Counted from the first letter of the stretch, positions 10,497 to 51,783 are shown. The stretch is 64,000 nucleotides of DNA from Candidatus Heimdallarchaeum aukensis (GCA_021513695.1 CP084166.1:32001-96000); one strand, 5' to 3'. The notes: generated by a model from the sequence alone, not told the origin. Made by a program: numbers and translations.

Positions 10497-10508
10497 ATAA
10501 AACTCTCC

Positions 10509-12053: not shown

Positions 12054-12073
12054 AAGTTAATCAAAATACTTGT

Positions 12074-14227: not shown

Positions 14228-14376
14228 TTTTGAGTTCACTTCAATTAGCACTAAAAACTATCTTTAATTTGTTATAAAAGTTTAGTTATTTATAATAGTA
14301 GTTCAATTAATTCTTTAAAATTCTAAATTTATCATGTTAAAGAGAACATATAATTGAAAAATAAAAAATCATAATT

Positions 14377-14966: not shown

Positions 14967-15227
14967 ATGTCATTAGTTCATCCTTTCGCTAAATCAATAA
15001 TTCAGAATTGTCAAAAAGATAATAGTTGGTTGATTATGCTTAAATGGTCAAAAATTGATGAAGTAAAGAAAATACTTGAAGACAGATGCGACTTTATAAG
15101 TAGTGTTGGCAGTTTTATATTAAAATACAAGTATAAAGGAGTTGACATTTCTTTTTACAAAAATGGTAAACTTATTTTCACTAATGTAGAAAATATTGAA
15201 ATTATTATAAAAGATCTATTAGGTTAA
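14967..15227 (+). CDS. Hypothetical small protein located 4 nt upstream of iscS.
   Basis: The ORF is tightly packed with iscS. The C-terminal YKNGKLIFTN is reminiscent of the TBP-like YxSGKvlfQG motif of the RNase HIII N-domain. This is a weak by-eye similarity only. Confidence 0.4.
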   Translation: MSLVHPFAKSIIQNCQKDNSWLIMLKWSKIDEVKKILEDRCDFISSVGSFILKYKYKGVDISFYKNGKLIFTNVENIEIIIKDLLG

Positions 15228-15231
15228 AAAA

Positions 15232-16443: not shown

Positions 16444-16483
16444 AAAATAATAAAAAATTAAATTAAAAGAAAAGGTGAAAAAG

Positions 16484-16987: not shown

Positions 16988-17053
16988 TGTAGTTTATTTT
17001 AGTATAATGTTTTTTTTCTACTTCCAAAATTTATTTTATCGTAAATTTAAAAA

Positions 17054-34543: not shown

Positions 34544-34709
34544 ACATGATTTTTAAACTTTAAATTTGACTGCTAAAAATGCAACTTTTCAAGGCTTGTA
34601 GTACATTTTATATATTAATTATCGTATAGTACTCTTTAGAGTTCTGGGATTGGAATTGGGGCTATTATTTCCTGGAGTAAGTAATTGAAAATTGAAAAGA
34701 AGTGTAAAA

Positions 34710-37700
34710 ATGAAAAAAAGTAAAATTAAAGTTATTTCTATTATCGCTATTTTTCTTCTCATCTTGAACGTCTCGACGATATACGTTCAAGGTCAGATGG
34801 TAGGTAATGAAACTAAATTAATGATGACTGGAAATCCTACAGAAGTTTATGAAGATCAGATAGCGATTCTGTATGATCCATTTAATGATATGACAAGAGA
34901 ACTAGCAAATTCGATTTATGAGACTGTTCATATGTTTTATTCTAACGTGAAAATGGTCAAAGTTTTCAATTTAGATTCATTTAACAGAGCTTTTTATGAT
35001 GATGATTGGATTAAAATCTATGTTTTCGACTCTGACTTAAAAGGAATAAAATTTGCTGGTTGGACAATGTCATGGAGAAAACTAACTGGATACTACAATG
35101 TTTTCAAAGATACAAGGCACATTGGAGTTTATGGAAACTCATACAAGATGGGTCCATATCTTAAGACTGAAAACTGTTATATAGAAAATACAGAGATTCT
35201 AGATTATCGTATTGCTTACATTCATGTATTGTGGTCATTATATGATATTTTTACAGAAAAAGAAGATGAAATTCTTCAACAAATAGGAGAAAATTTCAAA
35301 TTAATAGCAATTAAATATTTTGGAGATTCATTTGAAGAAATAATGTCTGCCGAGTTTGATCCACAAGGATTAGGTGTTGTTGACCCAAAAAAGGCAGAAG
35401 AAAGATTACAAGATTCAATGGACCAATATCCAAAGAGATTAAATAAAGTTAATCCATATACGGGTGAGTTAGTTGATCCAACAGCAGAGATTGAAGGATT
35501 TAATCCTGTAATGGATATTAAACCCAAAGCAGCGATAGATGAAGATGACATTGTTTTAGGTGAGTTTCCGTTCTTATCTTCGATTCCTGGAGCTGCAGGT
35601 GACGTTATTAAAATAATTTTAGAGTTTATAGGTGTCGAGATACCAGAAGGTTTATTGACTGTAGGTAAAGAATATGGGGGGCAGATCGTCGCAATAATTA
35701 AAGAGATACCTAAAATTATTGGTTTCTTTAAGGATCCAAGTGCAAGTAGTGCTATTGAACTATTTTTTGATGTAGCAAAAGAAATGTTTCCCAGTATAGA
35801 AGAATATAAGCCCTACTTCGATATAGTAGTGAAAGCCCTATTTTCGATAAAAGATATTGCTTCAGGGGATCTTACTCCTTTAATTGATATATCAATGGAA
35901 CTTCTACGATTTATAATTCCTGATAGTGTAGGAGATTTTGTTGACGATGTTTTTGATGCTTTAAACATATCAAGTGCCCTTTCTGATATTATTAGTGGAG
36001 TTACTAATGTTGGTGATTATCTTAAGAGTTTTCTCAATAGGCAACTAATTACAAATTTAATGAAGAAATTTATTGAACAGACTTTAGATCTAGGGGGAGA
36101 ATCCCAAAAATGGATAGATACCATTTCAGAGATTATTATGATTGCTTATGAAATTGCCAGCACTCGAGATATGGATCACATAATAGCGGATGTCTTTCCA
36201 CGATTAGGAAAATTAGTTTACAAGAACATCTTAGATATGACCTATGATGAAAATGTAGAAAATACCTTCAAAGGAATTGCTGTTGCAATTAAGATGGGTT
36301 TTGGAGCTGCTGGAATCATTGATGTTAATCTTAAGGATTCATTTATGGATTTAATAGGCTTCTTCTTCCCTGACCTCGTTGAGACAGTTAATGATGTTAA
36401 ATTCTTTGTTTCAAGTATTAGGTCTCAAATTGATTCCTTTATGGATCTTGTTAAAGATGTTTCAGAAGGTAAAAATCTAGATGTAAACAACGTTCATGAC
36501 CAAATTATATCTTTAATTACTGAGCTTAGTTCATTATCAGGTCATTCTCTCGATGCAAATAAGATAAATGTACTCTCTCAAGCTGTTTTGATGGCTTTAG
36601 CTCTAATAAATGGTGATTTTGAAGCTTTAAGTGATACTAGCTGCCTAACAAGTCTAGTTGATGGATTTCTAGAACATTTTATTGGACTAGAAGAAGGTCC
36701 TAGAGAAATTGTACAAAAGGCAATAGAAGCTGGAGCAGCTATTTTACCTTTCATTACTGGGAAAAAGAGTTTGAAAAAATATATTATGGGAAGACTTGAA
36801 GATTTTGCTGACAAATTCAAGAATCCTGGAGAAATAATTGAAAAGGTTCTTTATTATTTCCTAAGCAAGTACAACGCAAGTACTCAACTTTACCAACTTA
36901 TTGGAAAAATTGTAGGAATAGTCATTGACATCTTTTCTGGAGGATTTGACTTTTCTGTTCAAAATGTTATTCAGACAATAATCTCAATGGCAGTTGTAGT
37001 TTTGAACATGTTAGATGTCAATATTCCGTTAGAAGCAATGTACAAGAGTTTTCAACTTCTATGGGAAGAGGGGCCAGAATTTTCCAATGTTGTAAAAGTA
37101 GTTCAAGATATTATGGGATTACTTGGAGGAAGCATTGACCCAACAATTAAAACTACTGTAGAAACAGTTCTTACTTTTCTAGGAGGAGCAAAGAATATCT
37201 TCAAAGATGGAATAAAATGGATAATGAACCAACTTGTAGGTTGGGCAGCAGGGCAGATTGCTAATTTATTAAATATGCTTACTGATAAATTAAATGAACT
37301 GTTCCAATCTCTTGGTGATTTGGTAAGTTATGATTCTGAATTCCCAATTGGTTTCGGAAGTTTTACTGCCTTCCAGATGCGAGTATTCTTCTCTTTAAGT
37401 CCTGGATTCGAAATTAACCCTGAACCAATTCAAGAGCTCATTATGAGTATGATTTTTGATGGGTCAAAGGTTTTTGATCTCGATAATATCGGAGAATTGT
37501 TTAAGCTTATCTTAAAATCAATTTCAATTATTCCTATTTTCAAAGCTGGACTTGAAATCAAAGCAGGAACGTCTGGAAAGAACGACTTAATGAAGATGCT
37601 CCTTGATTCTCTTGGTCTGGAACTTTCATTCTCTGGCTCTGCAGGACTAACACTGCAATTAATGAAGATTTCTAATGGTAAAATAAGTACTAGTGATTTC

Positions 37701-40700
37701 TTCAAAGTAATAGAATTCTTCTTTAAATTCCAGATATCAATAGCTAAAACATTCCCATTAGCAGAATTTCTAGGTCCAGGAGGAGCAGTTTTAGCTAAAG
37801 TTGCAGAATTCTTAGGTTTAGGTGGAATTTACCTAAAGATAGAGTTCTTTATAGCAATAGAAATTGTTAAACGATGTGAGACACCTACTCAGAAGGCTGC
37901 AGATATTTTAACAATTGTAATAGGAATAGGTGTTTCTGTAATTATTGATATCGACTTGGTAATTGTTGGAATAAAAATAACTATAGGTTTTGTAGTGACG
38001 CTGACGTTTATCCAGGACTTCTTGGCGGACGCACCGCTGCAAGTGATACTCGAGATAGAGTTCACTGTAGCGGTGAAACTGACGTTCTTGTTCGTCGACT
38101 GGACAGGAACAGCGTCATGGGGTCCAGATCCAATTTATCTGGCAGGAGGACCGGATGATGAAAGCACAAAAGACGAAATGAGCGGCTTGGACGCAGATGG
38201 GGATGGGTTACCTGATTCATATGAGTTAGGAGTTCCAGGAATGAAAGTAGACAGCGATGACAGTGATGGAGACGGTTTATCAGACCAATTCGAAGTGAAA
38301 ACGAGTAAAACAGACCCTATCACTGCAGATTCTGACGATGATGGTCTAGATGATTACATGGAATATGAAGTCTTAAAGACCAATCCTCTACAAGTAGATA
38401 GTGACTATGATGGTTTAACTGACTATGAAGAAGTTGTTATCTATGGAACTGATCCTAATGCACAAGATACAGATGGTGATCAATTAGATGACTATTACGA
38501 AGTAAATACTGCATGGAATATCACTGGAATAACTCCAAGTGTAAGATTTGTTACAATTGGGGGAGTAGAGTATAAAGATCATACTGATCCTCTTAATCCT
38601 GATACTGATGGTGATGGACTTCTAGATGGACAAGAAGGAGAATTTGGGGCTTATTATGGACCAGAATTGTATAACACTTCAGACCCAAGTTGGGATCCCT
38701 ATCCAATATTCTACAATCAAGGATATACTCATCCATTAGATAATGATACCGATGATGATTCTTATAAACAATTAGCAAATGGAACTATAGCTCCAGATCG
38801 TCAGTTCTTAATCTATATGTCTGATAAGGTAGAAATAGATGGACAATGGGTTATTTTCATTGAAGATGATGAATTAATGGGTAGAGTAGTTAGAACTAAC
38901 CCAATTAACCCTGATACTGATGGTGATTCAGCAGTAATGGATAAATCTTGGAGAGGTGATGGGGCTCCTCTTGACTTTTTCCTGAAGTCTGATGGTTACG
39001 AACTCTGGTTAGATCCGCCGACAGACCCGAATGACGCGGATATGGACGATGATGGATTAATTGACGGTTTAGAGGGTTGGGGTAATAAGATCAGTAATCA
39101 TACTGATCCTCGTAATCCTGATACTGATGGTGATGGACTTGGAGACCTGCAAGATATTCTACTCGGTTCGGATCCTTTGAACCCTGATAGTGATATGGAT
39201 GGAATTCTAGATGGTGAGGAGTTCTTCAAGTATGGAACTAACCCCGCTTATGAAGATACAGATCATGATGGGCTTTTGGATGGTGAGGAAGTTTATCTAT
39301 TCCACACAAACCCTCTGGCGGTAGATAGCGATGGAGATGGGATAGATGATGGAATGGAGGTATTAGTTTATGGTTCAGACCCGATGGATGAAGATATGGA
39401 TAACGACGGTCTAACAGACTGGGAAGAGATTTTCTACTACTTTACCAATCCTAGAGATTACGACTCAGATGATGATGGTCTAAGTGATGCTATGGAGGTT
39501 TTAGATGAATATGCTATATACACTGACCCATTGAATTGGGACTCTGATAATGATTCAATCACATATCCTAATGAAAACGGAAATTATACTTTCCCACTTT
39601 CTGATGGAGATGAAGTACTAATTTACGGAACTGACCCATTGACAAGCGATACTGATGGAGATGGATTGCACGATTCGTTTGAACTATATCTTGGTTCAGG
39701 TTTAATTTACAACTTTACTCCTGTACCTTTGGATCCGTTATCTAACGATACTGATGGAGATGGAATATATGATGCAAATGAATACCACATTGCAAATGTC
39801 TCTAACATCATTTATCCTTATGTTAGTTTTATCATCACCCAACCTTACAATACTTCTCCAGTAGATCCAGACTCTGATGATGACGGGATTATCGATGGAG
39901 ACGAAGTCTATGTATATGGAACTATGCCAGATATGAAAGATACAGATGGAGATGGACTAGACGATTGGAGTGAACTTAATATTATGTATACTAACCCTCT
40001 GAGTTCGGATACGGACAATGACTATCTGACAGATTGGGAAGAATGGTATGCGGGTTTTGAACATCCAGGATATCTACTTGATCCTAACGACCCTGATTAT
40101 GATAATGATATGCTGCCAGATGGGCCAGAGTTACTACTTTACGGTTCTAATCCTAATAATGCCTATGAGATTGATCCAAGTTCAGGAAAAGTCGATGGTC
40201 TGTTGATGGATTGGGACCATGATGGTCTAGAAGATGGTTTAGAGTTCTTTGTATACAACACTAGTTATGTAGCAGGAGGAGGAGTCACCCAGCCAGATAG
40301 TGATAGAGATGGTTTGATGGATGGTGCAGAAGTATATGTTCATGGTACAGTCCCCACGAATTGGGATACTGACAATGATACATATAGTGATGGATTAGAA
40401 GTGATGTTAGGACTAGATCCTCTTACATATACAACAGAAGAGGAATTTATAGCAGCTCTATCTGCAAATCAAGATATGCTAGAAGCAGGAGTACTAGTTA
40501 TCTCACCAATAGAAGGTGGAATTTACTCTCCTTCTAACTATACTTTCATCCTCTATAACGTGACAGAACTACTGGGCGTACAATATCAAATGAAGAAGAA
40601 CAAACAAGATTTCGGAGACAACATGAGTATGTACTATGATGATGTTTCAAGGACGTGGATAACTCAAGGAGATTATATTGGACCTGGAGATTATATCGTC

Positions 40701-40913
40701 AGATTTTATGTGACAAAACCTGATGGAAATGTTTCGTTTATAGAACGGACGTTTTATGTCGAAGGAAGTCCAGTTGTCTCTCTACCTTGGGTCTTTGCGG
40801 GAATAGGTGGGGGAGTAGCTATTGGTGTTGCTTCAACTTTGACCGTTTATGCAGGAAGAGCAGGAAAACTGCGATTCTTAAAGAATATCTTTAAAAGAGG
40901 AGGTGCTTCATAA
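34710..40913 (+). CDS. Giant surface protein (about 2,067 aa). Domains in order: signal peptide, orphan N-terminal module of about 1,130 aa (helical then beta-rich), long TSP3 repeat array, beta-sandwich-like domain, C-terminal TM anchor.
   Basis: - The ATG at 34710 gives MKKSKIKVISIIAIFLLILNVSTIYVQG. The track start at 34692 is a TTG.
- More than 25 DxDxDGxxDxxE motifs lie at DNA about 38180-40400.
- C-terminal anchor: VFAGIGGGVAIGVASTLTVYAG.
- The stop overlaps the next start (TAATG). Confidence 0.85.
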   Translation: MKKSKIKVISIIAIFLLILNVSTIYVQGQMVGNETKLMMTGNPTEVYEDQIAILYDPFNDMTRELANSIYETVHMFYSNVKMVKVFNLDSFNRAFYDDDWIKIYVFDSDLKGIKFAGWTMSWRKLTGYYNVFKDTRHIGVYGNSYKMGPYLKTENCYIENTEILDYRIAYIHVLWSLYDIFTEKEDEILQQIGENFKLIAIKYFGDSFEEIMSAEFDPQGLGVVDPKKAEERLQDSMDQYPKRLNKVNPYTGELVDPTAEIEGFNPVMDIKPKAAIDEDDIVLGEFPFLSSIPGAAGDVIKIILEFIGVEIPEGLLTVGKEYGGQIVAIIKEIPKIIGFFKDPSASSAIELFFDVAKEMFPSIEEYKPYFDIVVKALFSIKDIASGDLTPLIDISMELLRFIIPDSVGDFVDDVFDALNISSALSDIISGVTNVGDYLKSFLNRQLITNLMKKFIEQTLDLGGESQKWIDTISEIIMIAYEIASTRDMDHIIADVFPRLGKLVYKNILDMTYDENVENTFKGIAVAIKMGFGAAGIIDVNLKDSFMDLIGFFFPDLVETVNDVKFFVSSIRSQIDSFMDLVKDVSEGKNLDVNNVHDQIISLITELSSLSGHSLDANKINVLSQAVLMALALINGDFEALSDTSCLTSLVDGFLEHFIGLEEGPREIVQKAIEAGAAILPFITGKKSLKKYIMGRLEDFADKFKNPGEIIEKVLYYFLSKYNASTQLYQLIGKIVGIVIDIFSGGFDFSVQNVIQTIISMAVVVLNMLDVNIPLEAMYKSFQLLWEEGPEFSNVVKVVQDIMGLLGGSIDPTIKTTVETVLTFLGGAKNIFKDGIKWIMNQLVGWAAGQIANLLNMLTDKLNELFQSLGDLVSYDSEFPIGFGSFTAFQMRVFFSLSPGFEINPEPIQELIMSMIFDGSKVFDLDNIGELFKLILKSISIIPIFKAGLEIKAGTSGKNDLMKMLLDSLGLELSFSGSAGLTLQLMKISNGKISTSDFFKVIEFFFKFQISIAKTFPLAEFLGPGGAVLAKVAEFLGLGGIYLKIEFFIAIEIVKRCETPTQKAADILTIVIGIGVSVIIDIDLVIVGIKITIGFVVTLTFIQDFLADAPLQVILEIEFTVAVKLTFLFVDWTGTASWGPDPIYLAGGPDDESTKDEMSGLDADGDGLPDSYELGVPGMKVDSDDSDGDGLSDQFEVKTSKTDPITADSDDDGLDDYMEYEVLKTNPLQVDSDYDGLTDYEEVVIYGTDPNAQDTDGDQLDDYYEVNTAWNITGITPSVRFVTIGGVEYKDHTDPLNPDTDGDGLLDGQEGEFGAYYGPELYNTSDPSWDPYPIFYNQGYTHPLDNDTDDDSYKQLANGTIAPDRQFLIYMSDKVEIDGQWVIFIEDDELMGRVVRTNPINPDTDGDSAVMDKSWRGDGAPLDFFLKSDGYELWLDPPTDPNDADMDDDGLIDGLEGWGNKISNHTDPRNPDTDGDGLGDLQDILLGSDPLNPDSDMDGILDGEEFFKYGTNPAYEDTDHDGLLDGEEVYLFHTNPLAVDSDGDGIDDGMEVLVYGSDPMDEDMDNDGLTDWEEIFYYFTNPRDYDSDDDGLSDAMEVLDEYAIYTDPLNWDSDNDSITYPNENGNYTFPLSDGDEVLIYGTDPLTSDTDGDGLHDSFELYLGSGLIYNFTPVPLDPLSNDTDGDGIYDANEYHIANVSNIIYPYVSFIITQPYNTSPVDPDSDDDGIIDGDEVYVYGTMPDMKDTDGDGLDDWSELNIMYTNPLSSDTDNDYLTDWEEWYAGFEHPGYLLDPNDPDYDNDMLPDGPELLLYGSNPNNAYEIDPSSGKVDGLLMDWDHDGLEDGLEFFVYNTSYVAGGGVTQPDSDRDGLMDGAEVYVHGTVPTNWDTDNDTYSDGLEVMLGLDPLTYTTEEEFIAALSANQDMLEAGVLVISPIEGGIYSPSNYTFILYNVTELLGVQYQMKKNKQDFGDNMSMYYDDVSRTWITQGDYIGPGDYIVRFYVTKPDGNVSFIERTFYVEGSPVVSLPWVFAGIGGGVAIGVASTLTVYAGRAGKLRFLKNIFKRGGAS
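38180..40400 (+). repeat. In-frame TSP3-type Ca-binding repeat array within the giant CDS 34710..40913.
   Basis: More than 25 DxDxDGxxDxxE units, interrupted by short non-repeat inserts. Confidence 0.8.
40897..40905 (+). promoter_or_regulatory. Shine-Dalgarno sequence for the second giant gene. It lies inside the 3' end of the first gene, and the stop and start overlap (TAATG).
   Basis: GAGGAGGTG lies 7 nt upstream of the ATG at 40913. The TAA at 40911-40913 shares its last A with the ATG. Confidence 0.7.
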
Positions 40914-43900
40914 TGCACGTAAAAAATAATTTAATTTGGAAGAAAGTATTAATCCTTTCTTTATTAGCTATAATGATTAGTTCACTAGTAGTAGGAATGC
41001 CCAATGCTCCGTTTGTTAATGCAGAAACTAATTCTGCACAATCTTTGCCTGATACAATAAGTTTAGAGGAAGCTAAACAACTAATGCAACAAATAAATGA
41101 AGGCAATGGTGGGGGCAACTTTGCTTCTGTTGAGCAACAAATCATTGATCCTGATTTAGATTTAAGTAGGTTATTAGCTGATAATCCTAATGAATATCAA
41201 CAAACATATCAACCTTGGAAATCTCAAGCTGCTGTTAGAAGTATAACCATCTCTGATGATTATGAATTTATGGCAGTAGGGGGAGGATATCTCTTTGACA
41301 ACGAAGTACAAGTATATCGATGGAACCCTGATATTAATCAATATGCTAAAGTTTGGGTGAGTGGAGATTCAGTTATTAAAGGCGATGTAATAGATGTCGA
41401 TTTTGGAGATACTGATAATAATGATTTCTTAGAAATTATTGCCACATCTTCTGACGGGTATTTCTACGTCTTTGAACAAGAACATATTTTTGACCCTGTA
41501 ACAAATACAGAAAATAGATTTGATCTTGTTTACACTAGTCCTTATTTAGGTCAAGTGTGGGGTGTAGAAGTTAATGATACAGATTTAGATCATCTAGACG
41601 ATATAATTGTCGTAAGTTGGGATCACAAAGTACATGTTTATGAATATTGGTTACACTCTGGTTATCCATTCAATTCAGAACATTGGATTACATATAGAGA
41701 AAAATGGCAAAGTCATGATACAGGTTATCATTTGTCTTCTTTAGTTGTTGGAGATACAAACTATAATGGTCTTCCAGACTTTGTTGTGGGAACGAGAGAA
41801 GGAGCTATTCTAGTTTTCGAAAATAATGGAACTATTTTAGATATCCAAGGACAACCTTATCCTCTTGCCCAAGATAATAGTTACAAATTAATTTATGCTG
41901 ATAATGAGTCAATTTGGAGACCAATTTACTCTATGGATATAGGTAATCTAGATAACTCTCCAGGAGATGAAGTAGTAATAGCTTCCTTTGCTTTTAATGG
42001 ATACATTCTAAGGTATGATGATTATAAAGGATATTACTTACAGAAGCTGATAAAAGACTTTGAATCTTGGACTTTGAAAGACTTTTATCCTGCAGATCAT
42101 TATGTAGATAATGGAACAGCAGGACAAAATGTATATTTCCAAGATCCAAATTATACAGGAACAACAGTTGAAGAGCCTATTTTGCAAAGTAATCCTGCAT
42201 TTATAAAAGGAAACTATCCCTATAATACTGGAGCTGCGCAAAATAATGATACATGTTATACTCATTTCGAATCTAATAGTACTCATGCTGCATGGGAAGT
42301 ATATGATTTTGGAGCAGATGAAGAGGGAACAGGAAATGGGAATGATGCTGCAGACATATTATTAAAATTCAAAACTTTACTATTTGATTACATATATAGA
42401 GATGATTTTATTATTTCTATCTCTCCAGACTATGAACATTGGGTAACTGTTGATCCTTCTCTTATTAATACATTTAATGTTGCCGCATCAACAAAATATC
42501 TCAGAATTAATGTAGATCCAATTTTAATTGAAAATAAATGGAATTACTTCAGATACATCAATGTAACAGTAATTTCTAATTCTACCAAAGATTATAACTT
42601 GTTATCTATAGAATTGCCTTATGTTTACCAAACTGTTTCAACAGCTTTAAGTGCTGAAGTGGGAACTTTAATGACCAGTACAGATACTAATGAAGAAGTT
42701 ATCCATGCAATTTTAGGAACAGTTGATGGCCGTCTTGTAGCTTTTAAATATGATGCCACTTCAGACTCGTTTGTTTTATCTTGGGATAGCTGGGTAGATG
42801 ATAGATTTACTGTTGGAATAAACATATGGGATATAGAACAAGTTAAGAATCTAGGCTCTATGCCTATGATATACGGAGTTACTGATTTGGAAACAGGTTA
42901 TCAACTTAGGATAAGTCCCTCTCCAGGAAGCCAAATTTCACAAGTGATTTTTGATTATACATTGTTCAATATTGATGGAGATTCTCCAGTTACAGGCGAA
43001 TTTGCAATTGTGGGTGGTAATGGAGATGTGTATTACTTTGATAATGGATTTGATTATGATGCTGCACAAACAACCCAATACTTCTCTTCGATCAACGATT
43101 ATGCAACTTATACAGGAAATATATCAATAGGTGCAGTAGAAATTGATACAGACTATTCCCAAGAAGAATTACTTATCGGTCATTACGATCCAAGTCTTTC
43201 TAATCAATACGATGACTTTGAAGATGATTCTTCAGATGTACTTCCAGCAGATATAAAAATATGGACACAAGTATCTTCAAAATATGAGTTAAATATATCA
43301 CTTTATAGTTTGGAAACAACTGGTCAACTTCGTGAAATATTAAAAAGTGCTCAATCAATTCCTTCAGCAGAAGGAGAGGATATTGATGGGGACGGAGATG
43401 TTGATATTGTTGTTTGTATTGAGAATCTATATCTACTTTGGAACATAGGAACACCAAGTAATCCAGAATTTATTTTGGATTCTGATTACTTTAAAGATAT
43501 AAATGAAGTAAAAGGAAGAAGACAATTCCTACATCCTCAATTTGTGGAATTTGAAATGGATGGAATTTATGATCTATCGATTGGCTACTCAAATAGAGTG
43601 GGAGCAACATATTTTGATAATTATGGAACTGCTCTTGCTCCTAAATGGGAAGAAAGAAAAGAGTTAGTTAACAACTTTGATGAAGAAGCTACAATAAATG
43701 TCTATAACTTTACTAGACCTCTCTGGATAAAATATTCAGAATTTGATGAATATTCTACTTTGTTATTAGAACATAATACAGGAAAGAGCTACTATGACAA
43801 GTACTACATATATACAATGCTAGATGATAGAAATGGTGACATGGTTTACTTCATGATTTCAAATAAAATACAAACTAGCTTCATGGTAGCATCTAATCCT

Positions 43901-46900
43901 ACTGTATCTAGAATCGAAGTTAACACCTTCAAATCTGAAGAATATGGAGGGATCTATAAGTGGAGGAATTTTGGATTTAGGGCAATTATAAGCTGGACGA
44001 CAGCAATAGATCTCTATAATTGGACTTTGACTGTAGATTCTGGAGATTTAGACCAAGATGGGAAAGGAGAAATTATAGTAGGAGACTATGATAGTAATGT
44101 ATACATCTTTGAGCATATGACTAATAATACTTACAAACGTGCATTCAGGTCTCCTGATATGCTCCAGTATGTTCCAACTGATGAAACACCTTATAGTTGG
44201 GACAAATTTGGAGGATATGAAGGAGAGTTTAATCAGACAATTTGGAACCATGTGAGCTATTTGCTTGTGAATGCTGATAGTGATGGAGACGGTTATCTTG
44301 AGTTAGCTGCTCTTGCAGGAACAGTTCTGTATGTATTTGAAGACACGGGAATAGATGATACATACTCATACATGTATAGACTAGATGTTTTAAGGAGTTC
44401 AGCAGGAGAATACTTGAAAGAAAATGGTTTTCTTACACCTTCTGGTTTAACATGGGCTCAAGATTTAGATTTAGATGGTTATGGAGAGTTCATAATAGCC
44501 TTTGAAAAACAAGTATTTGTTTATGAACCTTATTCTGGAACACTCTATGAACTGTTTGGTAATGTTGCATCTGATGACCCTGAAACAGGACACTATAATA
44601 TTTTAGGAAATGCTAGGGTATTTGATAATATTACAATAAATGGAATGTTATGTTCTGACATTAATGAAAATGGAAGAGAAGAACTTTTCATTTATGGTTC
44701 TGTAGATGTTGATCTTCTTGATTATGAAGAAGGATTTATTGTAATGATTGAAAGCATCGATCTAGGCTATAAGATAATCTGGCAAGGACCAACAGAGTTA
44801 GTTAGTAGAAATATTATTACAGACCTTGAAATTGCTGACCAGGACTATGATGGTTTCAAAGAATTGATCATTGGTGGAAGTAAAGGTGTAAGTATTTACG
44901 AATTTGTTGGAGGAACAACTGCTAGCTTTACTCAAGAGGGACTAATTACAGGACACATGAATTATCCCCAAATGGCAGCTCATTCACTATTTGGAAAATA
45001 TAGTTACAATGATGATTATGACTATAGAAAACAGAGGTCTCATGATATAAGACAGATAGTTTACAGTGGAGGTTCAAATAATCATTCATATATTTCTGCT
45101 TTTAGTGAGTATAACGATACAATGGGTGCATATGCTATATATCAAAAAGTAAGTCATGACGGAGTAAATTGGTTATCGAGCAAACTTATAGCTTATTGGT
45201 ATTCTGGTGGTTACATAAGTTTATACTTCCCCTCACTTACACAGACAAGTAATTACTCTCTCTGGTTAGCAGTTACTTGTAAATTTTATAGCGTAGGTTT
45301 AGGTTCCGTATATGGCGTTCTTCTATATCGTTCAGATGATTATGGGGCAAATTGGGTATTCGTAGATGGATTGGCTTCAGAATATATAGAAGAAGGTTCA
45401 ACAAATCCGATATATTCACCCACAATATTCCCAACAGGACCTAATTCAATAGGTTTAGTGTATATTTTCAGACCAAATAACACTTATTCAGAATTATACT
45501 ATGGAGGGTTATTTGATAATGGAACAGTAATACCTCAAACAAAAATCGAGGGTTTTGATGATTTCATGTTCAACGGTGTTGATGTTGATTCAAAACCTGA
45601 TAATAGTGGAGTATATGCTGCTGCTTTTAGTGCTAAAAAGTATATTGAAGAAAAAGATGATTACGATATCTGGTACTGTGAATTTAATTCAACCTATGGA
45701 TTAATACTTGAACCAAGAAGACTATTTACTTCATTCTCTGTTGAGCATACTCCTAGTATTACTTATGTCCACAATGATGCCTATTCTAGACTTCTAACAT
45801 TTGATTCTTCTGGATTACAAAAGGCGATGACTTTATCATATGGAATGGTTTCTGATGATGGAATACATTGGTCTGACCCAGATATACTTGCTGAATATCC
45901 AGAGTATATTATTCCTCCAACTAAGTCAAACCCCTATCCAAAGATATCTGGTTTCTCTAACAGTTGGAGTATATATGATCTAGGTTTCAGAGCTCCAAAA
46001 GTTGCTCCAACCTACGATGGTAAATTCATATTACTTACAAAATTTGATGCAACTATTGTCTACTTCTCATTCCCAATCTTCTATATATATTATTATAATG
46101 ACTACGTAAGCCAAATTTATCCATTGAACTTTACAAGTTTTGTAGGGTTAAACACTGTAACAGATCTTGCTGTTGGAGACTCGGATAGAGATGGTAGAAA
46201 AGAGATAATGATAGCTGATGGATATCGAGCAGAAATGTTTGAGTTACTTAACACAAAAAATAGGAAGCAACTTTATACAAGCAAATGGTATAGTCCTGAG
46301 CATGATAATCCTGTTTCCGATGTAACTATGTTTGACACAAATGGTAACGGTTTTCCTGAACTAATTTACAGCGTTCAAGGCGAAGACATTTATGTATATG
46401 ATGTTGTAAATATTCATTTACCAAAGGCAGATTTACATAAATTACAATCAACTACTTTAGACTTATCTGGTGCTGGAAAGGTTATAACTAGAATTAAATC
46501 AGATCTAAATGATGACGGAATAAATGACATGGTGGTTTATTGCGAAGGAGGAAAAATGTATGGAATCTTAGGTAATAACCTGTCAATTTTATGGACTTTG
46601 GAAGATTCATTAGTTTCTCCAAATTGGTTCCTCGAAGAATCAATTTATCATGGTAATAGTGCTCTAATTTTTGTAAATAGTAATGGAACAACTTTGTGGA
46701 TAGACAAGAAAACAGGACAAGTTATAACCTCTCTTGATTTAGGTGAAGGAAGTTATACCTTAAATCCAATAGCAACAATGCTTAACTATACAAAGGATAA
46801 CACCATGGACATTGCCATTAAAGGTGATGCTCCTGGACATATTTATCTCTTTGACGGGAATAATGGTTCGCTTCTAAAGGATCTCACTTTCGACACTGAA

Positions 46901-48922
46901 AGATATGTGCAAGAAATTGAAGTAGCACATGAGCAAGGAGAGGATTATCTCATAGTTTCTTATTATTGGATAGAATATAAAGACCTAGGTGGCGGTATTA
47001 TTGTATGGATATTCCATGGAAAGATTACTGCTTACAACTTATCTTCGTCCTCACTAGATCAAATATGGGAAGTTAACTCTTACTATGCTGGAGGATTTAG
47101 AGGGGCAAATTTAATAGTAGATGATATTAATGGAGATGGAGATTCAGAAATATATGCATTTGGTGGTGGAATAAAATTACTTGATGCTAATGGTACTGAA
47201 TATTGGCGGGCTTACAACTATTTCTACTCTTATGATGCTGTTATATTTGATATAAATGATGATGGAATTAAAGATATAATTACTTCTTCAGGACAGAATA
47301 GTAAAGTTACAGCTCTTGATGGAAAAGATGGAAATGTTACTTGGAGTAATATACCCACCCAGAATATCTATGACTTAGAGATTAGTGACCCAGAAGGAGA
47401 AGATCCAATCCTTTATCTAGCTAACTCTAGAACAGATTATCAAGGAATAATTTTCTTAAACATTAGGAATGGTGGGTTCTTAGGTTACTATTACGACACA
47501 AGTAGTGATTTTCTAAATGATAACGCATTGGTACCAACCACTGTGGATTCAAAACCTGCAGTCTTAGCAGTTGATTATGACGCAGAGAAAATTTATCAAG
47601 TTCAAATAAATGAAACAGAACAAGTTTATGAGCATGATATTATACCTAAACTCTCCTTTGATCAAATACTTAAAACTGGAAAGAATGTTAACCCCGATAC
47701 TGTTATTTATGACAATCTAAACGACGATGAGTATGTAGAAATTTTCTATATACAAAATGGAAATGAGTCATTCATCTATAATCCAATCAAAGGTGAGTAT
47801 ATTGAAGAATATACTATCCCTACAAATGGGAGTGTTCTTTATGCTTTCAAAGCTAATTTATCTGACACTTCATTCTATGATTCTATTTTTATAATTACCT
47901 CTGAATACAAGGTAGGTGTTTTAGATCTCACTTCAATGAGTTATAAAAAGATATTGGACTTATCAGGTTATGTAGATGAAATTGCTTCATATGCTTACTT
48001 GGATATTACTGAAGATGTATTTATTTTAGGTTTCTTTGACTATACAAAGAAAGCATGGTACGTAGGCGCATGGAATATTAAAGGAGAAGAGGTATTCTCA
48101 CCTATTTACCAAGGTTCTCATAAACCAGATCAAATAAATGCAGGTAAATTACTTGATAAAGCCACGTATGAAGAAGGAGCAGCTTTTGTAATAACAAGCT
48201 TTGGTGCATACATATATGCTTATGATCTTAAGGGAACACAACTAGCTATGATTAAACAAGATGGACCTGCAGGTTTCACAGCTTTAGGAGAACTGAAAAA
48301 AGGATTAGGTTTTGAGTTTGTTTACTATAGGTTTGGAGATAAATTCTACTGTTATAACCTTAATACCATGACTGATGAATGGTCATCTACTTTAAGAAAT
48401 GACAATGAACTATTATCTATTGCTGTAGGATATATTGATAGCTCTACTAATCCTGATTATGCTAAAGTATTTGTTTCGCAGAGCGGTACAGGAATTTATG
48501 CATTTGATGATGTAGATAAAGAGTTATGGTATCACAGACATAATTCTTTTGTTGCTAAATTCCTTCATGTGATCAATGATGAAGCTTTAGGCAAGGTTCT
48601 TCAAGTTACAGATTATCATAGAACATTCTACATCAATGGAACAACTGCTGAAGTTTTATATGCTACAAGTACCTTGATGAAACAAGTTCTTTGGGTAGGA
48701 ACATGGTCTTCTCCAGACTCTGCATATGACTCAATAGCATTCTTTGATGGAAACTCATTCTATAGTCGAGGAATAGATGTTTCTTCTTCAGGAGCTTCAA
48801 CAGTGCAAGATCATATGGAAATCTCTGCAGAAAGGTTAACAAGACTTAGTACTCCAATAATTATAATGATGAGTGTAATGGTAACCATAATCACTCTTGT
48901 CTTCAGAAAAAATAAAAGTTAA
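40913..48922 (+). CDS. Giant surface protein (2,669 aa). Domains: signal peptide, multiple FG-GAP/VCBS-type propeller repeats, an Asp-box (BNR) region, PQQ/BamB-like repeats, C-terminal TM anchor.
   Basis: - Strong SD GAGGAGGTG at 40897-40905.
- FG-GAP-like units: LVVGDTNYNGLPDFVVGTREGAILVFEN, DSGDLDQDGKGEIIVGDYDSNVYIFE, LAVGDSDRDGRKEIMIADGY, VDDINGDGDSEIYAFGGG.
- Asp-box-like motifs: SHDGVNW, SDDYGANW, SDDGIHW (DNA about 45150-45875).
- PQQ-like unit: ALDGKDGNVTWS.
- C-terminal anchor: IIIMMSVMVTIITLVF. Confidence 0.85.
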   Translation: MHVKNNLIWKKVLILSLLAIMISSLVVGMPNAPFVNAETNSAQSLPDTISLEEAKQLMQQINEGNGGGNFASVEQQIIDPDLDLSRLLADNPNEYQQTYQPWKSQAAVRSITISDDYEFMAVGGGYLFDNEVQVYRWNPDINQYAKVWVSGDSVIKGDVIDVDFGDTDNNDFLEIIATSSDGYFYVFEQEHIFDPVTNTENRFDLVYTSPYLGQVWGVEVNDTDLDHLDDIIVVSWDHKVHVYEYWLHSGYPFNSEHWITYREKWQSHDTGYHLSSLVVGDTNYNGLPDFVVGTREGAILVFENNGTILDIQGQPYPLAQDNSYKLIYADNESIWRPIYSMDIGNLDNSPGDEVVIASFAFNGYILRYDDYKGYYLQKLIKDFESWTLKDFYPADHYVDNGTAGQNVYFQDPNYTGTTVEEPILQSNPAFIKGNYPYNTGAAQNNDTCYTHFESNSTHAAWEVYDFGADEEGTGNGNDAADILLKFKTLLFDYIYRDDFIISISPDYEHWVTVDPSLINTFNVAASTKYLRINVDPILIENKWNYFRYINVTVISNSTKDYNLLSIELPYVYQTVSTALSAEVGTLMTSTDTNEEVIHAILGTVDGRLVAFKYDATSDSFVLSWDSWVDDRFTVGINIWDIEQVKNLGSMPMIYGVTDLETGYQLRISPSPGSQISQVIFDYTLFNIDGDSPVTGEFAIVGGNGDVYYFDNGFDYDAAQTTQYFSSINDYATYTGNISIGAVEIDTDYSQEELLIGHYDPSLSNQYDDFEDDSSDVLPADIKIWTQVSSKYELNISLYSLETTGQLREILKSAQSIPSAEGEDIDGDGDVDIVVCIENLYLLWNIGTPSNPEFILDSDYFKDINEVKGRRQFLHPQFVEFEMDGIYDLSIGYSNRVGATYFDNYGTALAPKWEERKELVNNFDEEATINVYNFTRPLWIKYSEFDEYSTLLLEHNTGKSYYDKYYIYTMLDDRNGDMVYFMISNKIQTSFMVASNPTVSRIEVNTFKSEEYGGIYKWRNFGFRAIISWTTAIDLYNWTLTVDSGDLDQDGKGEIIVGDYDSNVYIFEHMTNNTYKRAFRSPDMLQYVPTDETPYSWDKFGGYEGEFNQTIWNHVSYLLVNADSDGDGYLELAALAGTVLYVFEDTGIDDTYSYMYRLDVLRSSAGEYLKENGFLTPSGLTWAQDLDLDGYGEFIIAFEKQVFVYEPYSGTLYELFGNVASDDPETGHYNILGNARVFDNITINGMLCSDINENGREELFIYGSVDVDLLDYEEGFIVMIESIDLGYKIIWQGPTELVSRNIITDLEIADQDYDGFKELIIGGSKGVSIYEFVGGTTASFTQEGLITGHMNYPQMAAHSLFGKYSYNDDYDYRKQRSHDIRQIVYSGGSNNHSYISAFSEYNDTMGAYAIYQKVSHDGVNWLSSKLIAYWYSGGYISLYFPSLTQTSNYSLWLAVTCKFYSVGLGSVYGVLLYRSDDYGANWVFVDGLASEYIEEGSTNPIYSPTIFPTGPNSIGLVYIFRPNNTYSELYYGGLFDNGTVIPQTKIEGFDDFMFNGVDVDSKPDNSGVYAAAFSAKKYIEEKDDYDIWYCEFNSTYGLILEPRRLFTSFSVEHTPSITYVHNDAYSRLLTFDSSGLQKAMTLSYGMVSDDGIHWSDPDILAEYPEYIIPPTKSNPYPKISGFSNSWSIYDLGFRAPKVAPTYDGKFILLTKFDATIVYFSFPIFYIYYYNDYVSQIYPLNFTSFVGLNTVTDLAVGDSDRDGRKEIMIADGYRAEMFELLNTKNRKQLYTSKWYSPEHDNPVSDVTMFDTNGNGFPELIYSVQGEDIYVYDVVNIHLPKADLHKLQSTTLDLSGAGKVITRIKSDLNDDGINDMVVYCEGGKMYGILGNNLSILWTLEDSLVSPNWFLEESIYHGNSALIFVNSNGTTLWIDKKTGQVITSLDLGEGSYTLNPIATMLNYTKDNTMDIAIKGDAPGHIYLFDGNNGSLLKDLTFDTERYVQEIEVAHEQGEDYLIVSYYWIEYKDLGGGIIVWIFHGKITAYNLSSSSLDQIWEVNSYYAGGFRGANLIVDDINGDGDSEIYAFGGGIKLLDANGTEYWRAYNYFYSYDAVIFDINDDGIKDIITSSGQNSKVTALDGKDGNVTWSNIPTQNIYDLEISDPEGEDPILYLANSRTDYQGIIFLNIRNGGFLGYYYDTSSDFLNDNALVPTTVDSKPAVLAVDYDAEKIYQVQINETEQVYEHDIIPKLSFDQILKTGKNVNPDTVIYDNLNDDEYVEIFYIQNGNESFIYNPIKGEYIEEYTIPTNGSVLYAFKANLSDTSFYDSIFIITSEYKVGVLDLTSMSYKKILDLSGYVDEIASYAYLDITEDVFILGFFDYTKKAWYVGAWNIKGEEVFSPIYQGSHKPDQINAGKLLDKATYEEGAAFVITSFGAYIYAYDLKGTQLAMIKQDGPAGFTALGELKKGLGFEFVYYRFGDKFYCYNLNTMTDEWSSTLRNDNELLSIAVGYIDSSTNPDYAKVFVSQSGTGIYAFDDVDKELWYHRHNSFVAKFLHVINDEALGKVLQVTDYHRTFYINGTTAEVLYATSTLMKQVLWVGTWSSPDSAYDSIAFFDGNSFYSRGIDVSSSGASTVQDHMEISAERLTRLSTPIIIMMSVMVTIITLVFRKNKS

Positions 48923-48980
48923 ACATTTTTTTCCTTTTTTTATTTTTTAAAATAGTAAATTTAAAATTTTATAAATTCAA

Positions 48981-49025
48981 TTTTCTTCATTTTTGTCGGC
49001 TAATTATTCATTTTCTTCATTTTTG
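48981..49025. repeat. Direct repeat of the 15-mer TTTTCTTCATTTTTG, spaced exactly 30 nt apart, upstream of the Rab-like GTPase gene.
   Basis: Identical 15-mers lie at 48981-48995 and 49011-49025. Their flanks are similar (..TTCA[A] / [T]CGG). Confidence 0.7.
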
Positions 49026-49113
49026 CGGATAGAATTACCAATTATCTTATAAAAAGCCATGCGACAGTTAGAATGATAGACCACTAAAAGGTCATAAACT
49101 TGGGGGTTTAAGA

Positions 49114-49791
49114 ATGTTGATGGTACCTACTCAGATGAAAAAAATAACCATACTAGGGACAACTGGTAGTGGAAAGACCACCTTTTTAGAAGCTTTATTT
49201 GGTGATTTTGAAAAAAATGATGTTAAAAGAGATTTGAGTAAAGAAAAAAGTTCAAATTGTGATTTTATTCCTTTGAAAAATAATACATTCAAAGAAAGTA
49301 CAACAACAATAAGTTTGAATGTCATTAATTCATTGCTTTATTTGACTACATTTAATCGATTAGGTTTAGAAAAGTTCGAAAATAGAGACAATATTGACTT
49401 TGAAAATGTTGAAGAGATTTATCAAATAGTTTTCAATGATCCTGCAGGACAAGAAAGATTTGATTTCATGCAAGAGATAGCAGTAAGAGGAGCAAACCTA
49501 GTAATTATAATGGCTGATGGCACAAATATCTCGAGTTTAGAAAAAGTAGTTCATTATATTTCGTTGGTAAAAATTGAAGAAAATCTATCTAAAAAGAAAA
49601 TACCGACTATTATTTTCATCAACAAATCTGATTTAAAGGAAAAGGGTGTTTATTTAGGAAAAAATGTAGCTGAGCAGATTATTTATTCAAGCATTCTTGA
49701 TGAGAAATTACTTATTTATGAAACTTCTAACCTTAAGAGAGAAACATATGATGAACCTTTGAGGATTATTTTTAACTATCTTTCATACTAA
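49114..49791 (+). CDS. Small GTPase (Rab/Ras-like) with an extended switch-I region.
   Basis: - G1: GTTGSGKTT.
- G3: DPAGQERF (Rab/Ras-type DxxGQE).
- G4: NKSD.
- About 75 aa separate G1 and G3, which is longer than in canonical Ras-family proteins.
- GGGGGT lies 7 nt upstream of the start. Confidence 0.8.
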   Translation: MLMVPTQMKKITILGTTGSGKTTFLEALFGDFEKNDVKRDLSKEKSSNCDFIPLKNNTFKESTTTISLNVINSLLYLTTFNRLGLEKFENRDNIDFENVEEIYQIVFNDPAGQERFDFMQEIAVRGANLVIIMADGTNISSLEKVVHYISLVKIEENLSKKKIPTIIFINKSDLKEKGVYLGKNVAEQIIYSSILDEKLLIYETSNLKRETYDEPLRIIFNYLSY

Positions 49792-49843: not shown

Positions 49844-50818
49844 ATGAGCGTAAAAATAACCTCAGAATATATAGAGCTGCTGAATAAAGCAGTTGCAAGA
49901 GAATTACAAGTTTCTGTTCAATATTTTCTACAACACGCTAAAATTGAAAAAATAATGAGAAAAGTTAAAGCTGAAAATATTTTACTTGATTCCACAACTT
50001 ACGACCAGATAGGTCAGATTTTAAAGAAACTAGCAATAGAAGAAATGAAACATGCAGGATCAATCGTTGAGAGAATTTATTATTTGGGAGGCAAGGCAAC
50101 AACTAAAGCTTTTAAACCTAAAATAGGAGAAAATATGCAAGAATTTATGAAATATGGCTTTGAAGCTGAAGAAGAAGCTTTAGAATTATATCGTGAAATA
50201 ATCCGCGAGGCAGGTAAATTAGGAGATTATGATACTAAAGAACTCTTTAGGAAAATCTATAGAGAGGAAGAAGAACATCTTTATACGTTTCAAGAATATT
50301 TAACAATTAATATTAGTGAACCTGGAGAGACAGCACCAAAGTCCGAATGGAGAAAAGTTTTTGACGACGAATACTTTGCTCTATTAAACAAAGCCTTAGC
50401 TTCAGAACTGTCTGCTATTATTCAGTACATAACCCAACATGAAAAAGCGAGTGCAATCAATCTTAGGAAAAAAGAAACGCCTTTAGAAGTAATTACCAAT
50501 ACAAACAAAGCGCAAGTTATTAGTAACATGTTAAAGAAAATCTTTATGCAAGAAATGGAACATTACGAAAAGATTTCTGAAAGAATATACATGTTGGATG
50601 GAGAATGTACATTGGATCCTGATCCTTTGCCAAAAGTTGGTGAGAGCGTAGAAGATTTCTTGAAACTGGGTCATCAAGCTGAAGATGAAGCTATTGTTCT
50701 TTATCGTAAAATCATAGAAGAAGCTACTAAGAAGGGAGATATAACTACTAAGAAGATGTTTGAAGAAATATTGATGGAAGAAGAAGAACATTACTGGATG
50801 TTTGATGACTACTTGTAA
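49844..50818 (+). CDS. Tandem ferritin-like (bacterioferritin/rubrerythrin-type) di-iron protein with two four-helix-bundle halves in one chain.
   Basis: - First half: ELQVSVQY, EEMKHAGS, EAEEEALE, EEEEHLYTF.
- Second half: ELSAIIQY, QEMEHYEK, AEDEAIV, EEEEHYWMF.
- Together this gives two complete E..ExxH..E..ExxH ligand sets. Confidence 0.75.
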   Translation: MSVKITSEYIELLNKAVARELQVSVQYFLQHAKIEKIMRKVKAENILLDSTTYDQIGQILKKLAIEEMKHAGSIVERIYYLGGKATTKAFKPKIGENMQEFMKYGFEAEEEALELYREIIREAGKLGDYDTKELFRKIYREEEEHLYTFQEYLTINISEPGETAPKSEWRKVFDDEYFALLNKALASELSAIIQYITQHEKASAINLRKKETPLEVITNTNKAQVISNMLKKIFMQEMEHYEKISERIYMLDGECTLDPDPLPKVGESVEDFLKLGHQAEDEAIVLYRKIIEEATKKGDITTKKMFEEILMEEEEHYWMFDDYL

Positions 50819-51254: not shown

Positions 51255-51704
51255 ATGAAATTGAATATTACCCAATTTAAGATTAAATTCAAGGATAAAA
51301 TAGAAATTGAAAATGAAGAGAAATTTGCAGATAATATAATCTATTATTATCCGTTTTTTCAATCTTTAGATAAAAATGAGTTAGAGAAGTCTCTTCAATC
51401 AATAAGAGAAGAAAAAAAAGTCTTGGAGAAAAAATTCAAAAAAATAAAAGAAGAGTTCTCAGATATACTGGGAGAGATAGCAAAAATACGTTTCACAGCT
51501 AATGAATTATATAATCAAAATAGGGTTATAGCTCTGACTACAGGGTTATTAAGACATAAGCTGATAGATTTACATAATAATAATGTTGAACTTCCTTTTG
51601 ATTATGAGGAAACACTTAAGTTTGTAGAACATTTTATTTATAGATATTTAACTAAAAAAGAAGATAAAAGACTTGTTGCCCAGCTACCTTTTAAAGAGAT
51701 TTGA
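51255..51704 (+). CDS. Hypothetical helical protein.
   Basis: The ORF is contiguous with the previous gene and is coiled-coil-like. No family recognised. Confidence 0.4.
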   Translation: MKLNITQFKIKFKDKIEIENEEKFADNIIYYYPFFQSLDKNELEKSLQSIREEKKVLEKKFKKIKEEFSDILGEIAKIRFTANELYNQNRVIALTTGLLRHKLIDLHNNNVELPFDYEETLKFVEHFIYRYLTKKEDKRLVAQLPFKEI

Positions 51705-51783
51705 GAAAATTCACACTTTTTCTATTTGGAATAGTAATACTAAGTTTTATATTAAAAATAGAGAACCTTATTGCAAGGTCAAA

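Follow-up and report, generated by a model that had tools for sequence, protein, structure and literature searches.

Long arrays of DxDxDG thrombospondin type-3 (TSP3) repeats occur in secreted or surface proteins of Myxococcus, namely the gliding-motility adhesin CglD and the cell-cell cohesion protein MtsD, and FG-GAP blades with DxDxDG Ca loops are shared by integrin alpha and the VCBS/FG-GAP superfamily (ITFG2, CRTAC1, BBS2/7, FAM234). Both kinds of module are encoded in a 64,000-nt stretch of Candidatus Heimdallarchaeum aukensis DNA (GCA_021513695.1 CP084166.1:32001-96000; hereafter the window, with positions counted from its first letter), in which two adjacent giant genes specify a TSP3 protein (p1) and a chain of beta-propellers (p2). 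We propose that p1 and p2 are probably two subunits of one conserved membrane-anchored surface complex which, in the collections searched, is confined to Asgard-type archaea.

The likeness of p1 to the Myxococcus proteins lies in the repeat region only, where the NCBIfam models of CglD (E 1.2e-45; 155.8 bits versus a cut-off of 400) and MtsD (E 3.3e-13; 48.7 bits versus 800) are matched. Unlike these proteins, p1 has no VWA domain, carries a 1,150-residue head, has a transmembrane (TM) anchor instead of a lipobox, and comes with an obligatory propeller partner. With metazoan thrombospondin/COMP, p1 shares only the TSP3 Ca-binding repeat, and its repeats fit the bacterial model PF18884; Pfam found TSP3_bac alone in p1, with no TSP C-terminal lectin-like domain, EGF repeats, or oligomerisation coiled coil. 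Integrin alpha resembles p2 in its type-I topology and its pairing with a second type-I subunit, but p2 has several propellers instead of one and no thigh or calf domains. Pfam searches gave no Integrin_alpha2 match in p2, whose tail reads FRKNKS and not GFFKR, and no VWA/beta-I or integrin-beta match in its partner p1. The profile match of p2 to integrin alpha-V in the PDB is marginal (E ~1e-3) and does not rank above those to ITFG2, CRTAC1, or PL11 lyases. A first-pass annotation, made from the sequence alone, had drawn a parallel with the metazoan TSP3/integrin system; this parallel holds for the shared repeats and fails beyond them, where the defining domains are absent. The pair is not a thrombospondin or integrin orthologue, and its likeness to a heterodimeric type-I adhesion receptor is an analogy of architecture only.

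Two systems from Asgard archaea also invite comparison. The tandem giants Otus and Ephialtes are found in aloposons of the same genus, Heimdallarchaeum; aloposon genes encode 3,000-6,000 residues, integrate at tRNA genes, and are preceded by four genes, one of which codes for a MinD/ParA ATPase (Wu et al. 2022, PMC8813620). The pair described here is of a different size class, has no tRNA target and no ParA cassette, and is vertically conserved in many Asgard lineages, a distinction drawn from the published description of Otus and Ephialtes and not from their sequences. KTGHC1_P6247, the proposed Asgard surface-layer (S-layer) protein, is like the pair a candidate envelope protein in many Asgard lineages; its description sets it apart as a single protein, predicted to form a homotetramer with a central pore (10.1101/2025.02.26.640444).

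Public records already contain the genes of the pair, with their products given as hypothetical proteins or VCBS/PQQ repeat proteins. Liu and colleagues are said by others to have noted "integrin repeats" in Asgard genomes in 2021. Our literature searches returned no paper joining Asgard with FG-GAP and none naming the locus tags of the pair in Lokiarchaeum ossiferum, and none of the Asgard papers found with thrombospondin, integrin, or propeller terms describes the pair. While repeat-rich Ca-binding surface proteins are a known kind, the obligate pairing across Asgard lineages, the recurrent fusion, and the novel ~1,100-residue head are undescribed.

Adjacency, coupling and fusion of the two genes

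Gene 1 (34710..40913, + strand) encodes 2,067 residues from its ATG; an alternative TTG start lies at position 34692, and the ATG was retained because the resulting length equals that of the called orthologue in Candidatus Heimdallarchaeum endolithica (2,067 residues). Gene 2 (40913..48922, + strand) encodes a type-I surface protein of 2,669 residues. Intact open reading frames (ORFs) this long cannot arise by chance in DNA of 30-40% GC, and the two-gene unit amounts to ~530 kDa. At the coupling junction (40897..40915, + strand; ...AAAAGAGGAGGTGCTTCATAATGCAC), the Shine-Dalgarno (SD) sequence GAGGAGGTG occupies positions 40897-40905 in the final p1 codons, with a spacing of 7 nt to the p2 ATG (40913-40915), which itself overlaps the p1 stop codon TAA (40911-40913) by 1 nt within the pentamer TAATG (40911-40915). 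Hydropathy analysis places a hydrophobic segment at the N-terminus of each protein and a single TM-like segment near the C-terminus, beyond which only a short basic tail remains (21 residues in p1 and 6 in p2). Both are acidic, Lys/Arg-poor, and of moderate N-glycosylation sequon density, a composition that resembles that of other secreted proteins of the window. The first-pass annotation had reported the sizes of the two ORFs, the TAATG overlap with an SD for gene 2 inside gene 1, and a signal peptide plus C-terminal TM segment in both products, all of which were confirmed. Its suggestion of an Asgard-like source was also correct: the source is closely related to Ca. H. endolithica, whose K9W46_01380 shares 88% identity with p2 and whose complete genome shows exact synteny from the M42 peptidase gene to the alpha/beta hydrolase gene.

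A protein search with p2 yielded 83 homologues, most of them 2,600-3,300 residues long, and all source names that specify a taxon are Asgard (Heimdall, Loki, Thor, Hod, Kari, Hermod). To locate the genes, genomes were scanned with two peptide patterns, one genome per species, and the resulting 72 loci, which carry seven named Asgard labels (Heimdall-, Hod-, Kari-, Njord-, Thor-, Hermod-, and Loki-type), were then translated and searched. The p1 gene is directly upstream of the p2 gene in 54 loci, both are contained in one ORF (~4,700-4,900 residues where complete) in 7, and they are adjacent in the order p2->p1 in 3 (L063, L079, and L080). A further 7 loci are cut by a contig end and hence uninformative, and a single exception, L067, has 2.4 kb of upstream sequence without p1. 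The question of whether the two genes co-occur in other Asgard genomes, raised in the first-pass annotation, is answered by the 64 of 65 informative loci in which they are adjacent or fused, and the pair is a two-gene unit in most of the named Asgard lineages sampled.

Nine genomes gave two or three loci each; a second pair is therefore common. Both gene orders are present in genome DZ2M.341 (L057 and L079, the p2->p1 genes of the latter overlapping by 4 nt), which suggests an old duplication with rearrangement. In L. ossiferum (L009:3761-9997 and 10001-17890), a 2,078-residue TSP3 protein is encoded 3 nt upstream of the p2 orthologue and shares 36% identity with p1 over its full length, including the N-terminal 1,150 residues. 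The pair is also carried by one scanned Promethearchaeum sp. metagenome-assembled genome (MAG) and by several Hodarchaeota MAGs. Most of the 54 measured junctions have GGAGG in the last p1 codons and a p2 start, in some cases GTG, located -4 to +4 nt from the stop. A search of the 6-kb flanks of the 72 loci for a third conserved gene found no family in more than 6 loci, and searches of IMG/VR with p1 and p2 found no relatives.

The fused loci, whose sequence is free of Ns, are labelled mostly Thorarchaeota, with the others labelled Promethearchaeota or "uncultured archaeon." Their ORFs run from the p1 ectodomain and p1 TM segment through a ~65-residue Lys/Ser/Glu-rich linker and the hydrophobic segment of the p2 signal to the p2 ectodomain and a final TM segment, and the same p1-p2 fusion is found in two database proteins of ~4,350 residues. 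Since this layout leaves both ectodomains extracellular and sets the p1 base beside the p2 N-terminus, we take the fusions to be the strongest available argument for p1 and p2 as one functional unit of fixed stoichiometry. The obligatory co-expression claimed earlier is thus supported by adjacency, by the junction with its SD in the last p1 codons, and by fusions across Asgard lineages.

Architecture of p1 and p2

p1 is a type-I surface protein made up of a signal peptide, a novel ~1,100-residue head, a TSP3 Ca-binding array, a predicted immunoglobulin-like domain, and a TM anchor (this and all following features of p1 and p2 are on the + strand). Its signal peptide (34710..34796; residues 1-29, MKKSKIKVISIIAIFLLILNVSTIYVQGQ) has a hydropathy peak of 2.55 at residues 8-26 and a predicted cleavage site. 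The TSP3 array (38190..40409; residues 1161-1900) contains 25 distinct DxDxD(G) sites and matches Pfam TSP3_bac (PF18884) with an E value of 3.4e-23 and 81.6 bits, against a gathering cut-off of 25. The earlier description of more than 25 TSP3 repeats was therefore right as to their type, whereas their number is about 25. The array is followed by a membrane-proximal region and TM anchor (40482..40847), in which residues ~1925-2020 are predicted from sequence to adopt a beta-sandwich fold and residues 2022-2046 form the TM segment that precedes the basic tail. The C-terminal TM segment and tail are kept in homologues P0087-P0092, and the same region persists in the fused ORFs.

Residues 1-1150, over half of p1, contain no TSP3 repeats, a fact on which the first-pass annotation was silent. 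For this head, Pfam returned no family and PDB sequence-profile searches no relative. When 1.84 billion representative proteins were searched exhaustively with phmmer, 82 matched at E <= 0.001; where length allows judging, the match nearly always begins near the N-terminus of a ~2,050-2,300-residue protein, and the remaining matches are to shorter, probably partial proteins. The finding defines a new ~1,100-residue domain without a Pfam or PDB sequence relative. A word-indexed search had made the head appear rare (3, then 9 proteins), an artefact of scoring only the 8,000 top word-sharing candidates. This apparent rarity was rejected because the comparison with L. ossiferum, the locus translations, and exhaustive phmmer showed more.

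The architecture of the head can be described tentatively, with the help of AlphaFold2 (AF2) models, as three successive parts. The first, an alpha/beta domain (34857..35399; residues ~50-230) without a Pfam match, is modelled as a three-layer flavodoxin-like sandwich with a predicted local distance difference test (pLDDT) score of 80-90. The alignment consensus of this domain has no conserved Cys or catalytic dyad, and the lack of a conserved Cys gives no ground for calling it a peptidase. The second, a helical region (35592..37307; residues ~295-866), would comprise ~25 amphipathic helices, with a high alpha-helical hydrophobic moment, a pLDDT of 70-85 for residues 440-740, and PDB matches to designed helical bundles only. 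The third, an amphipathic beta module (37323..38129; residues ~872-1140), is the part of the head with the lowest column entropy, the highest beta moment, and the highest hydrophobicity. It includes an extra, very hydrophobic stretch at residues 1069-1087 by hydropathy, and AF2 shows long beta hairpins at low confidence; PDB and Pfam sequence searches with the module found no relative. Two functional readings of the head were tried and set aside. That the head is a large lipid-transfer protein would be speculation: the top Foldseek matches were MTP (6i7s; E 4e-4) and lipovitellin, but with a TM-score of ~0.1 and a low-confidence model, and Pfam and PDB profile searches gave no match at the sequence level. 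A pore-forming role for the beta module is unsupported, with gasdermin and MAC matches at E > 0.2.

The whole of p2 matches Pfam FG-GAP_3 with an E value of 2.3e-16 and, when scanned piecewise, exceeds the gathering score of 26.9 in three segments (29.4, 34.6, and 34.8 bits), in agreement with the three or more FG-GAP clusters recognized at first reading. The Pfam threshold and a nearly all-beta AF2 model with propeller matches both place p2 in the FG-GAP/VCBS beta-propeller superfamily; the profile searches thereby uphold the original domain assignments of both proteins, TSP3_bac for p1 and FG-GAP_3 for p2. The signal peptide of p2 (40913..41023; residues 1-37, predicted to be cleaved between ...VNA and ET) was identified by hydropathy, and an N-terminal hydrophobic segment is present in 69 of 75 full-length homologues. 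At the opposite end, the TM anchor (48845..48901; residues 2645-2663, hydropathy 2.27) leads into the 6-residue tail, and a C-terminal TM segment with a basic tail is found in 64 of the same 75 proteins.

Between these segments, p2 is occupied by successive propeller regions. The N-terminal FG-GAP propeller region (41195..43312; residues ~95-800, FG-GAP_3 29.4 bits) is the most conserved part of p2, with invariant columns densest at residues 88-330, and holds an insert (42104-42631; residues ~398-573) of ~180 residues that is mostly beta-strand. The AF2 model of residues 39-820 is nearly all beta (pLDDT 76.8), and its best Foldseek matches are multi-propeller scaffolds (SF3B3/DDB1, Elp2) and the FG-GAP protein ITFG2 (14-15% identity). 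A second FG-GAP propeller region with DxDxDG motifs follows (43310..44947; residues 800-1345), with FG-GAP_3 (34.6 bits) and FG-GAP (23.7 bits) both above cut-off. The middle region (44945..46162; residues 1345-1750) is possibly a BNR/sialidase-like propeller, given weak matches to BNR_6 (E 0.014) and Beta-prop_BT_1020 (E 0.003); PF13088 is present in some p2 homologues. The C-terminal propeller regions (46160..48832; residues 1750-2640) consist of an FG-GAP region (FG-GAP_3 34.8 bits) and then a PQQ-like beta region that no family matches confidently (PQQ_2 E ~1e-3, under cut-off). The Asp-box propeller and PQQ-like repeats initially ascribed to p2 thus correspond to weak matches. PDB profile searches with p2 also gave weak matches (E 4e-5 to 1e-2), to ITFG2, CRTAC1, BBS2, integrin alpha-V, and PL11 lyases.

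The proposed complex and competing explanations

Taken together, we infer that p1 and p2 associate physically in a Ca-dependent manner and serve as a structural or adhesive envelope component, among the "complex surface proteins" on S-layer-less Asgard cells. The N-terminal signals would export both proteins, and the C-terminal TM helices with their very short basic tails would hold both in the membrane. Coupling through GGAGG in the last p1 codons and the stop/start overlap would yield equimolar p1 and p2 at the same membrane site. p1 would then display its ~1,100-residue head (alpha/beta domain, helical region, and amphipathic beta module) on a ~750-residue Ca-binding TSP3 array, and p2 would form a chain of four to five beta-propellers with Ca-binding DxDxDG motifs in the FG-GAP loops. 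In one locus group, fusion would hard-wire the p1:p2 pairing, with what was the p2 signal serving as a second TM segment and the ~65-residue loop being cytoplasmic.

Such a complex would be of interest for the Asgard cell surface. Cryo-electron tomography (cryo-ET) of L. ossiferum and of one cultured Heimdallarchaeon showed an absent S-layer and unidentified surface proteins, and a 2026 review describes the Asgard coat as "of so far unknown composition," while S-layer-like lattices are described in Hodarchaeales (Imachi/Nobu preprint, 10.1101/2025.02.26.640444). S-layer proteins of archaea build a regular lattice in two dimensions and belong to the most plentiful proteins of a cell; cultured Loki- and Heimdall-type cells have no such regular lattice and bear a protein coat with elaborate structures. 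Asgard surface structures have also been invoked in models of partner contact during eukaryogenesis. Because KTGHC1_P6247 has already been proposed as an S-layer protein, the pair need not be the main coat; it is a candidate for the protruding "complex" structures and not necessarily for the coat itself. We regard it as unlikely that the "complex surface densities" of Asgard cells, or their amorphous coat, are built mainly of the p1-p2 complex; if they were, the pair would be an Asgard-specific cell-cell contact machine, relevant to how an archaeal host engaged a bacterial partner. Kept adjacent, coupled, or fused in 64 of 65 informative loci, and with named relatives that are all Asgard save for three loci with non-Asgard labels, the pair offers a specific molecular candidate, open to testing, for some of the surface structures borne by the archaea most closely related to eukaryotes. 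For the Loki-, Promethearchaeum-, and Hodarchaeota-type groups, in whose scanned genomes the pair was seen, cultures are available, as are public proteomes and cryo-ET data. Should it prove to be an ordinary adhesin, the pair would still be a useful Asgard signature marker.

Several points weigh against the two-subunit complex or its Asgard restriction. The literature that we searched for expression, localisation, or interaction of any orthologue contained none, and KTGHC1_P6247, with its predicted homotetramer, is already proposed as an S-layer protein conserved in many Asgard lineages (10.1101/2025.02.26.640444). The correlation between the p1 and p2 similarity matrices for 47 loci (r = 0.84; 0 of 2000 Mantel permutations as high), which speaks for a joint function, is confounded by species phylogeny. 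The AF2 model of the whole p1 head is poor (pLDDT 53.7). A scan with two patterns cannot judge absence from Odin-, Baldr-, Wukong-, and other lineages, and three loci (L040, L041, and L058) come from MAG records with non-Asgard labels, two Nitrososphaerota and one Bathyarchaeota UBA233; either these records are mislabelled or mis-binned, or the pair exists outside Asgard archaea.

Propellers of the FG-GAP/VCBS type are known from PL11 lyases and lambda-carrageenase, those of the BNR type from sialidases. A surface-bound machine that binds or degrades glycans is the rival explanation that survives best, although we consider it improbable. It draws on the profile matches that link p2 with rhamnogalacturonan lyases of PL11 (YesW, 4cag) and with a secreted esterase, on faint matches to PF25292 (carrageenase propeller) and PF13088 (BNR_2) in p2 homologues, and on the beta-rich domain inserted in the first p2 propeller. 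However, all these matches are weak, at or below family cut-offs, and no catalytic family was matched; Asgard-wide conservation, varying flanks, and the one or two copies in the nine second-locus genomes fit a structural component better.

There is also a slim chance that p1 and p2 are two independent adhesins that share an operon and form no physical complex, as repeat-rich surface proteins are often clustered and other TSP3/beta-helix surface proteins are encoded elsewhere in the window. Two such proteins of 962 and 1,038 residues (259..3147, + strand, and 3498..6614, - strand) are Asn-rich (12-14% Asn) and sequon-rich and combine a right-handed beta-helix (NosD/Beta_helix) with TSP3_bac; this genome therefore has TSP3 arrays in probable surface proteins besides p1. 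Against independence, the seven independent loci and two database proteins in which p1 and p2 are fused preserve the topology, adjacency is kept even in reversed order, and the coupling junction is conserved.

That p1 and p2 are polymorphic toxins or toxin-delivery proteins appears very improbable. The idea arises from the supplementary tables for L. ossiferum, which give the label arCOG07561/arCOG10338, category V, to an orthogroup containing PQQ_2, TSP3_bac, and FG-GAP_3. Yet the C-termini of the 64 p2 homologues mentioned above and of the p1 homologues examined end in a conserved TM segment and short basic tail instead of a variable toxin domain, the flanks offer no immunity-gene candidate (no downstream family in more than 6 of the 72 loci), and length and domain order are conserved across lineages, unlike in polymorphic toxins.

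We likewise give little credence to a role as a surface receptor with signalling by way of the neighbouring small GTPase (49114..49791, + strand; 225 residues), whose start is 191 nt past the p2 stop. This gene product matches TIGR00231 (47.9 bits versus 42.5) and Pfam Ras (E 3.8e-11) and has the motifs GTTGSGKT, DPAGQE, NKSD, and ETS of the Ras superfamily. The match covers only positions 45-151 of the 162 in the Ras model, with a ~50-residue insert between G1 and G3, and the C-terminus (...IIFNYLSY) has no Cys prenylation motif; the "Rab-like" part of its original description is accordingly dropped and the Ras-superfamily part retained. Same-strand adjacency, in the window and in the related loci L010, L011, and L014, speaks for signalling. 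Those three loci, all from Heimdallarchaeaceae, are the only ones with a homologue 3' of the pair: none was found within 6 kb downstream in the others, 44 of the 72 loci having at least 1.5 kb of downstream sequence, nor in L012 and L013, where p2 is 43-44% identical to the query and thus as close as in L011 and L014. In L. ossiferum, the pair is followed by the genes for LSM and ribosomal protein L37e.

The p2-GTPase spacer likewise argues against a shared transcript. Archaeal transcription uses oligo-T runs as terminators and TATA-like boxes as promoters. A 23-nt T-rich run (48926..48948, + strand; TTTTTTTCCTTTTTTTATTTTTT) that resembles an archaeal oligo-T terminator begins 4 nt past the p2 stop, and a TATA-like box (TTATAAAAA) is located ~60 nt upstream of the GTPase ATG, an arrangement that suggests termination and then an independent GTPase promoter. 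With cytoplasmic tails of only 6 and 21 residues in p2 and p1, and Asgard small GTPases being very numerous (291 in 8 MAGs), the functional link postulated between the pair and the GTPase finds no support, and the GTPase is best regarded as a neighbour and not as part of a conserved module. A second GTPase of the window (13262..14251, - strand; 329 residues) belongs to the Arf family (Pfam Arf E 2.2e-28) and has a ~150-residue C-terminal extension. The p2-GTPase spacer also contains the direct repeat TTCATTTTCTTCATTTTTG(T/C)GG, present twice at ~48985..49027, which may be a regulator binding site.

Least probable of all is an aloposon-type mobile element like those with tandem giants in Heimdallarchaeum: a serine recombinase gene does lie 2.7 kb downstream of the pair (51673..52506), but the proteins have 2,067 and 2,669 residues instead of 3,000-6,000, ARAGORN found no tRNA in the 64-kb window, the upstream genes (NAD kinase, NadA, QPRT, and M42 peptidase) are in conserved synteny and include no MinD/ParA cassette, and the pair occurs with differing flanks in many Asgard lineages and has no IMG/VR relatives.

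Other features of the window

Ordinary archaeal housekeeping genes flank the pair; their products are NadA, QPRT, NAD kinase, the M42 peptidase, a member of the IF-2B family, and a protein resembling archaeal type IV pilins. Scans of the whole window with Rfam and ARAGORN found no RNA and no tRNA. Downstream of the GTPase gene, a 324-residue protein with two ferritin domains (49844..50818, + strand) is the orthologue of Hend-dFTN (K9W46_01370), for which a dodecameric cryo-EM structure has been described (bioRxiv 10.64898/2026.08.25.747088); in H. endolithica, the Hend-dFTN gene is two genes 3' of the p2 orthologue. The adjoining segment 50889..52506 (+ strand) may be a small integrated element, with two small ORFs (121 and 149 residues; no Pfam match) and then the serine recombinase gene (Resolvase domain). 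L010 and L011 are among three related loci that also have the small ORFs 3' of the pair, and L013 is one of three in which the recombinase is found again.

Further ORFs of note lie on both sides of the pair. An 835-residue ORF without a Pfam match (26203..28710, + strand) has a high density of sequons (2.0 per 100 residues) and shares 4 nt with the beginning of the aspartate dehydrogenase gene. A second tightly spaced pair (56913..58769 and 58771..61494, + strand) encodes probable secreted proteins: the first (618 residues) is Lys/Arg-poor and sequon-rich, and in the second (907 residues), CarboxypepD_reg and Big_1 immunoglobulin-like domains come after an N-terminus of the archaeal type IV pilin kind.

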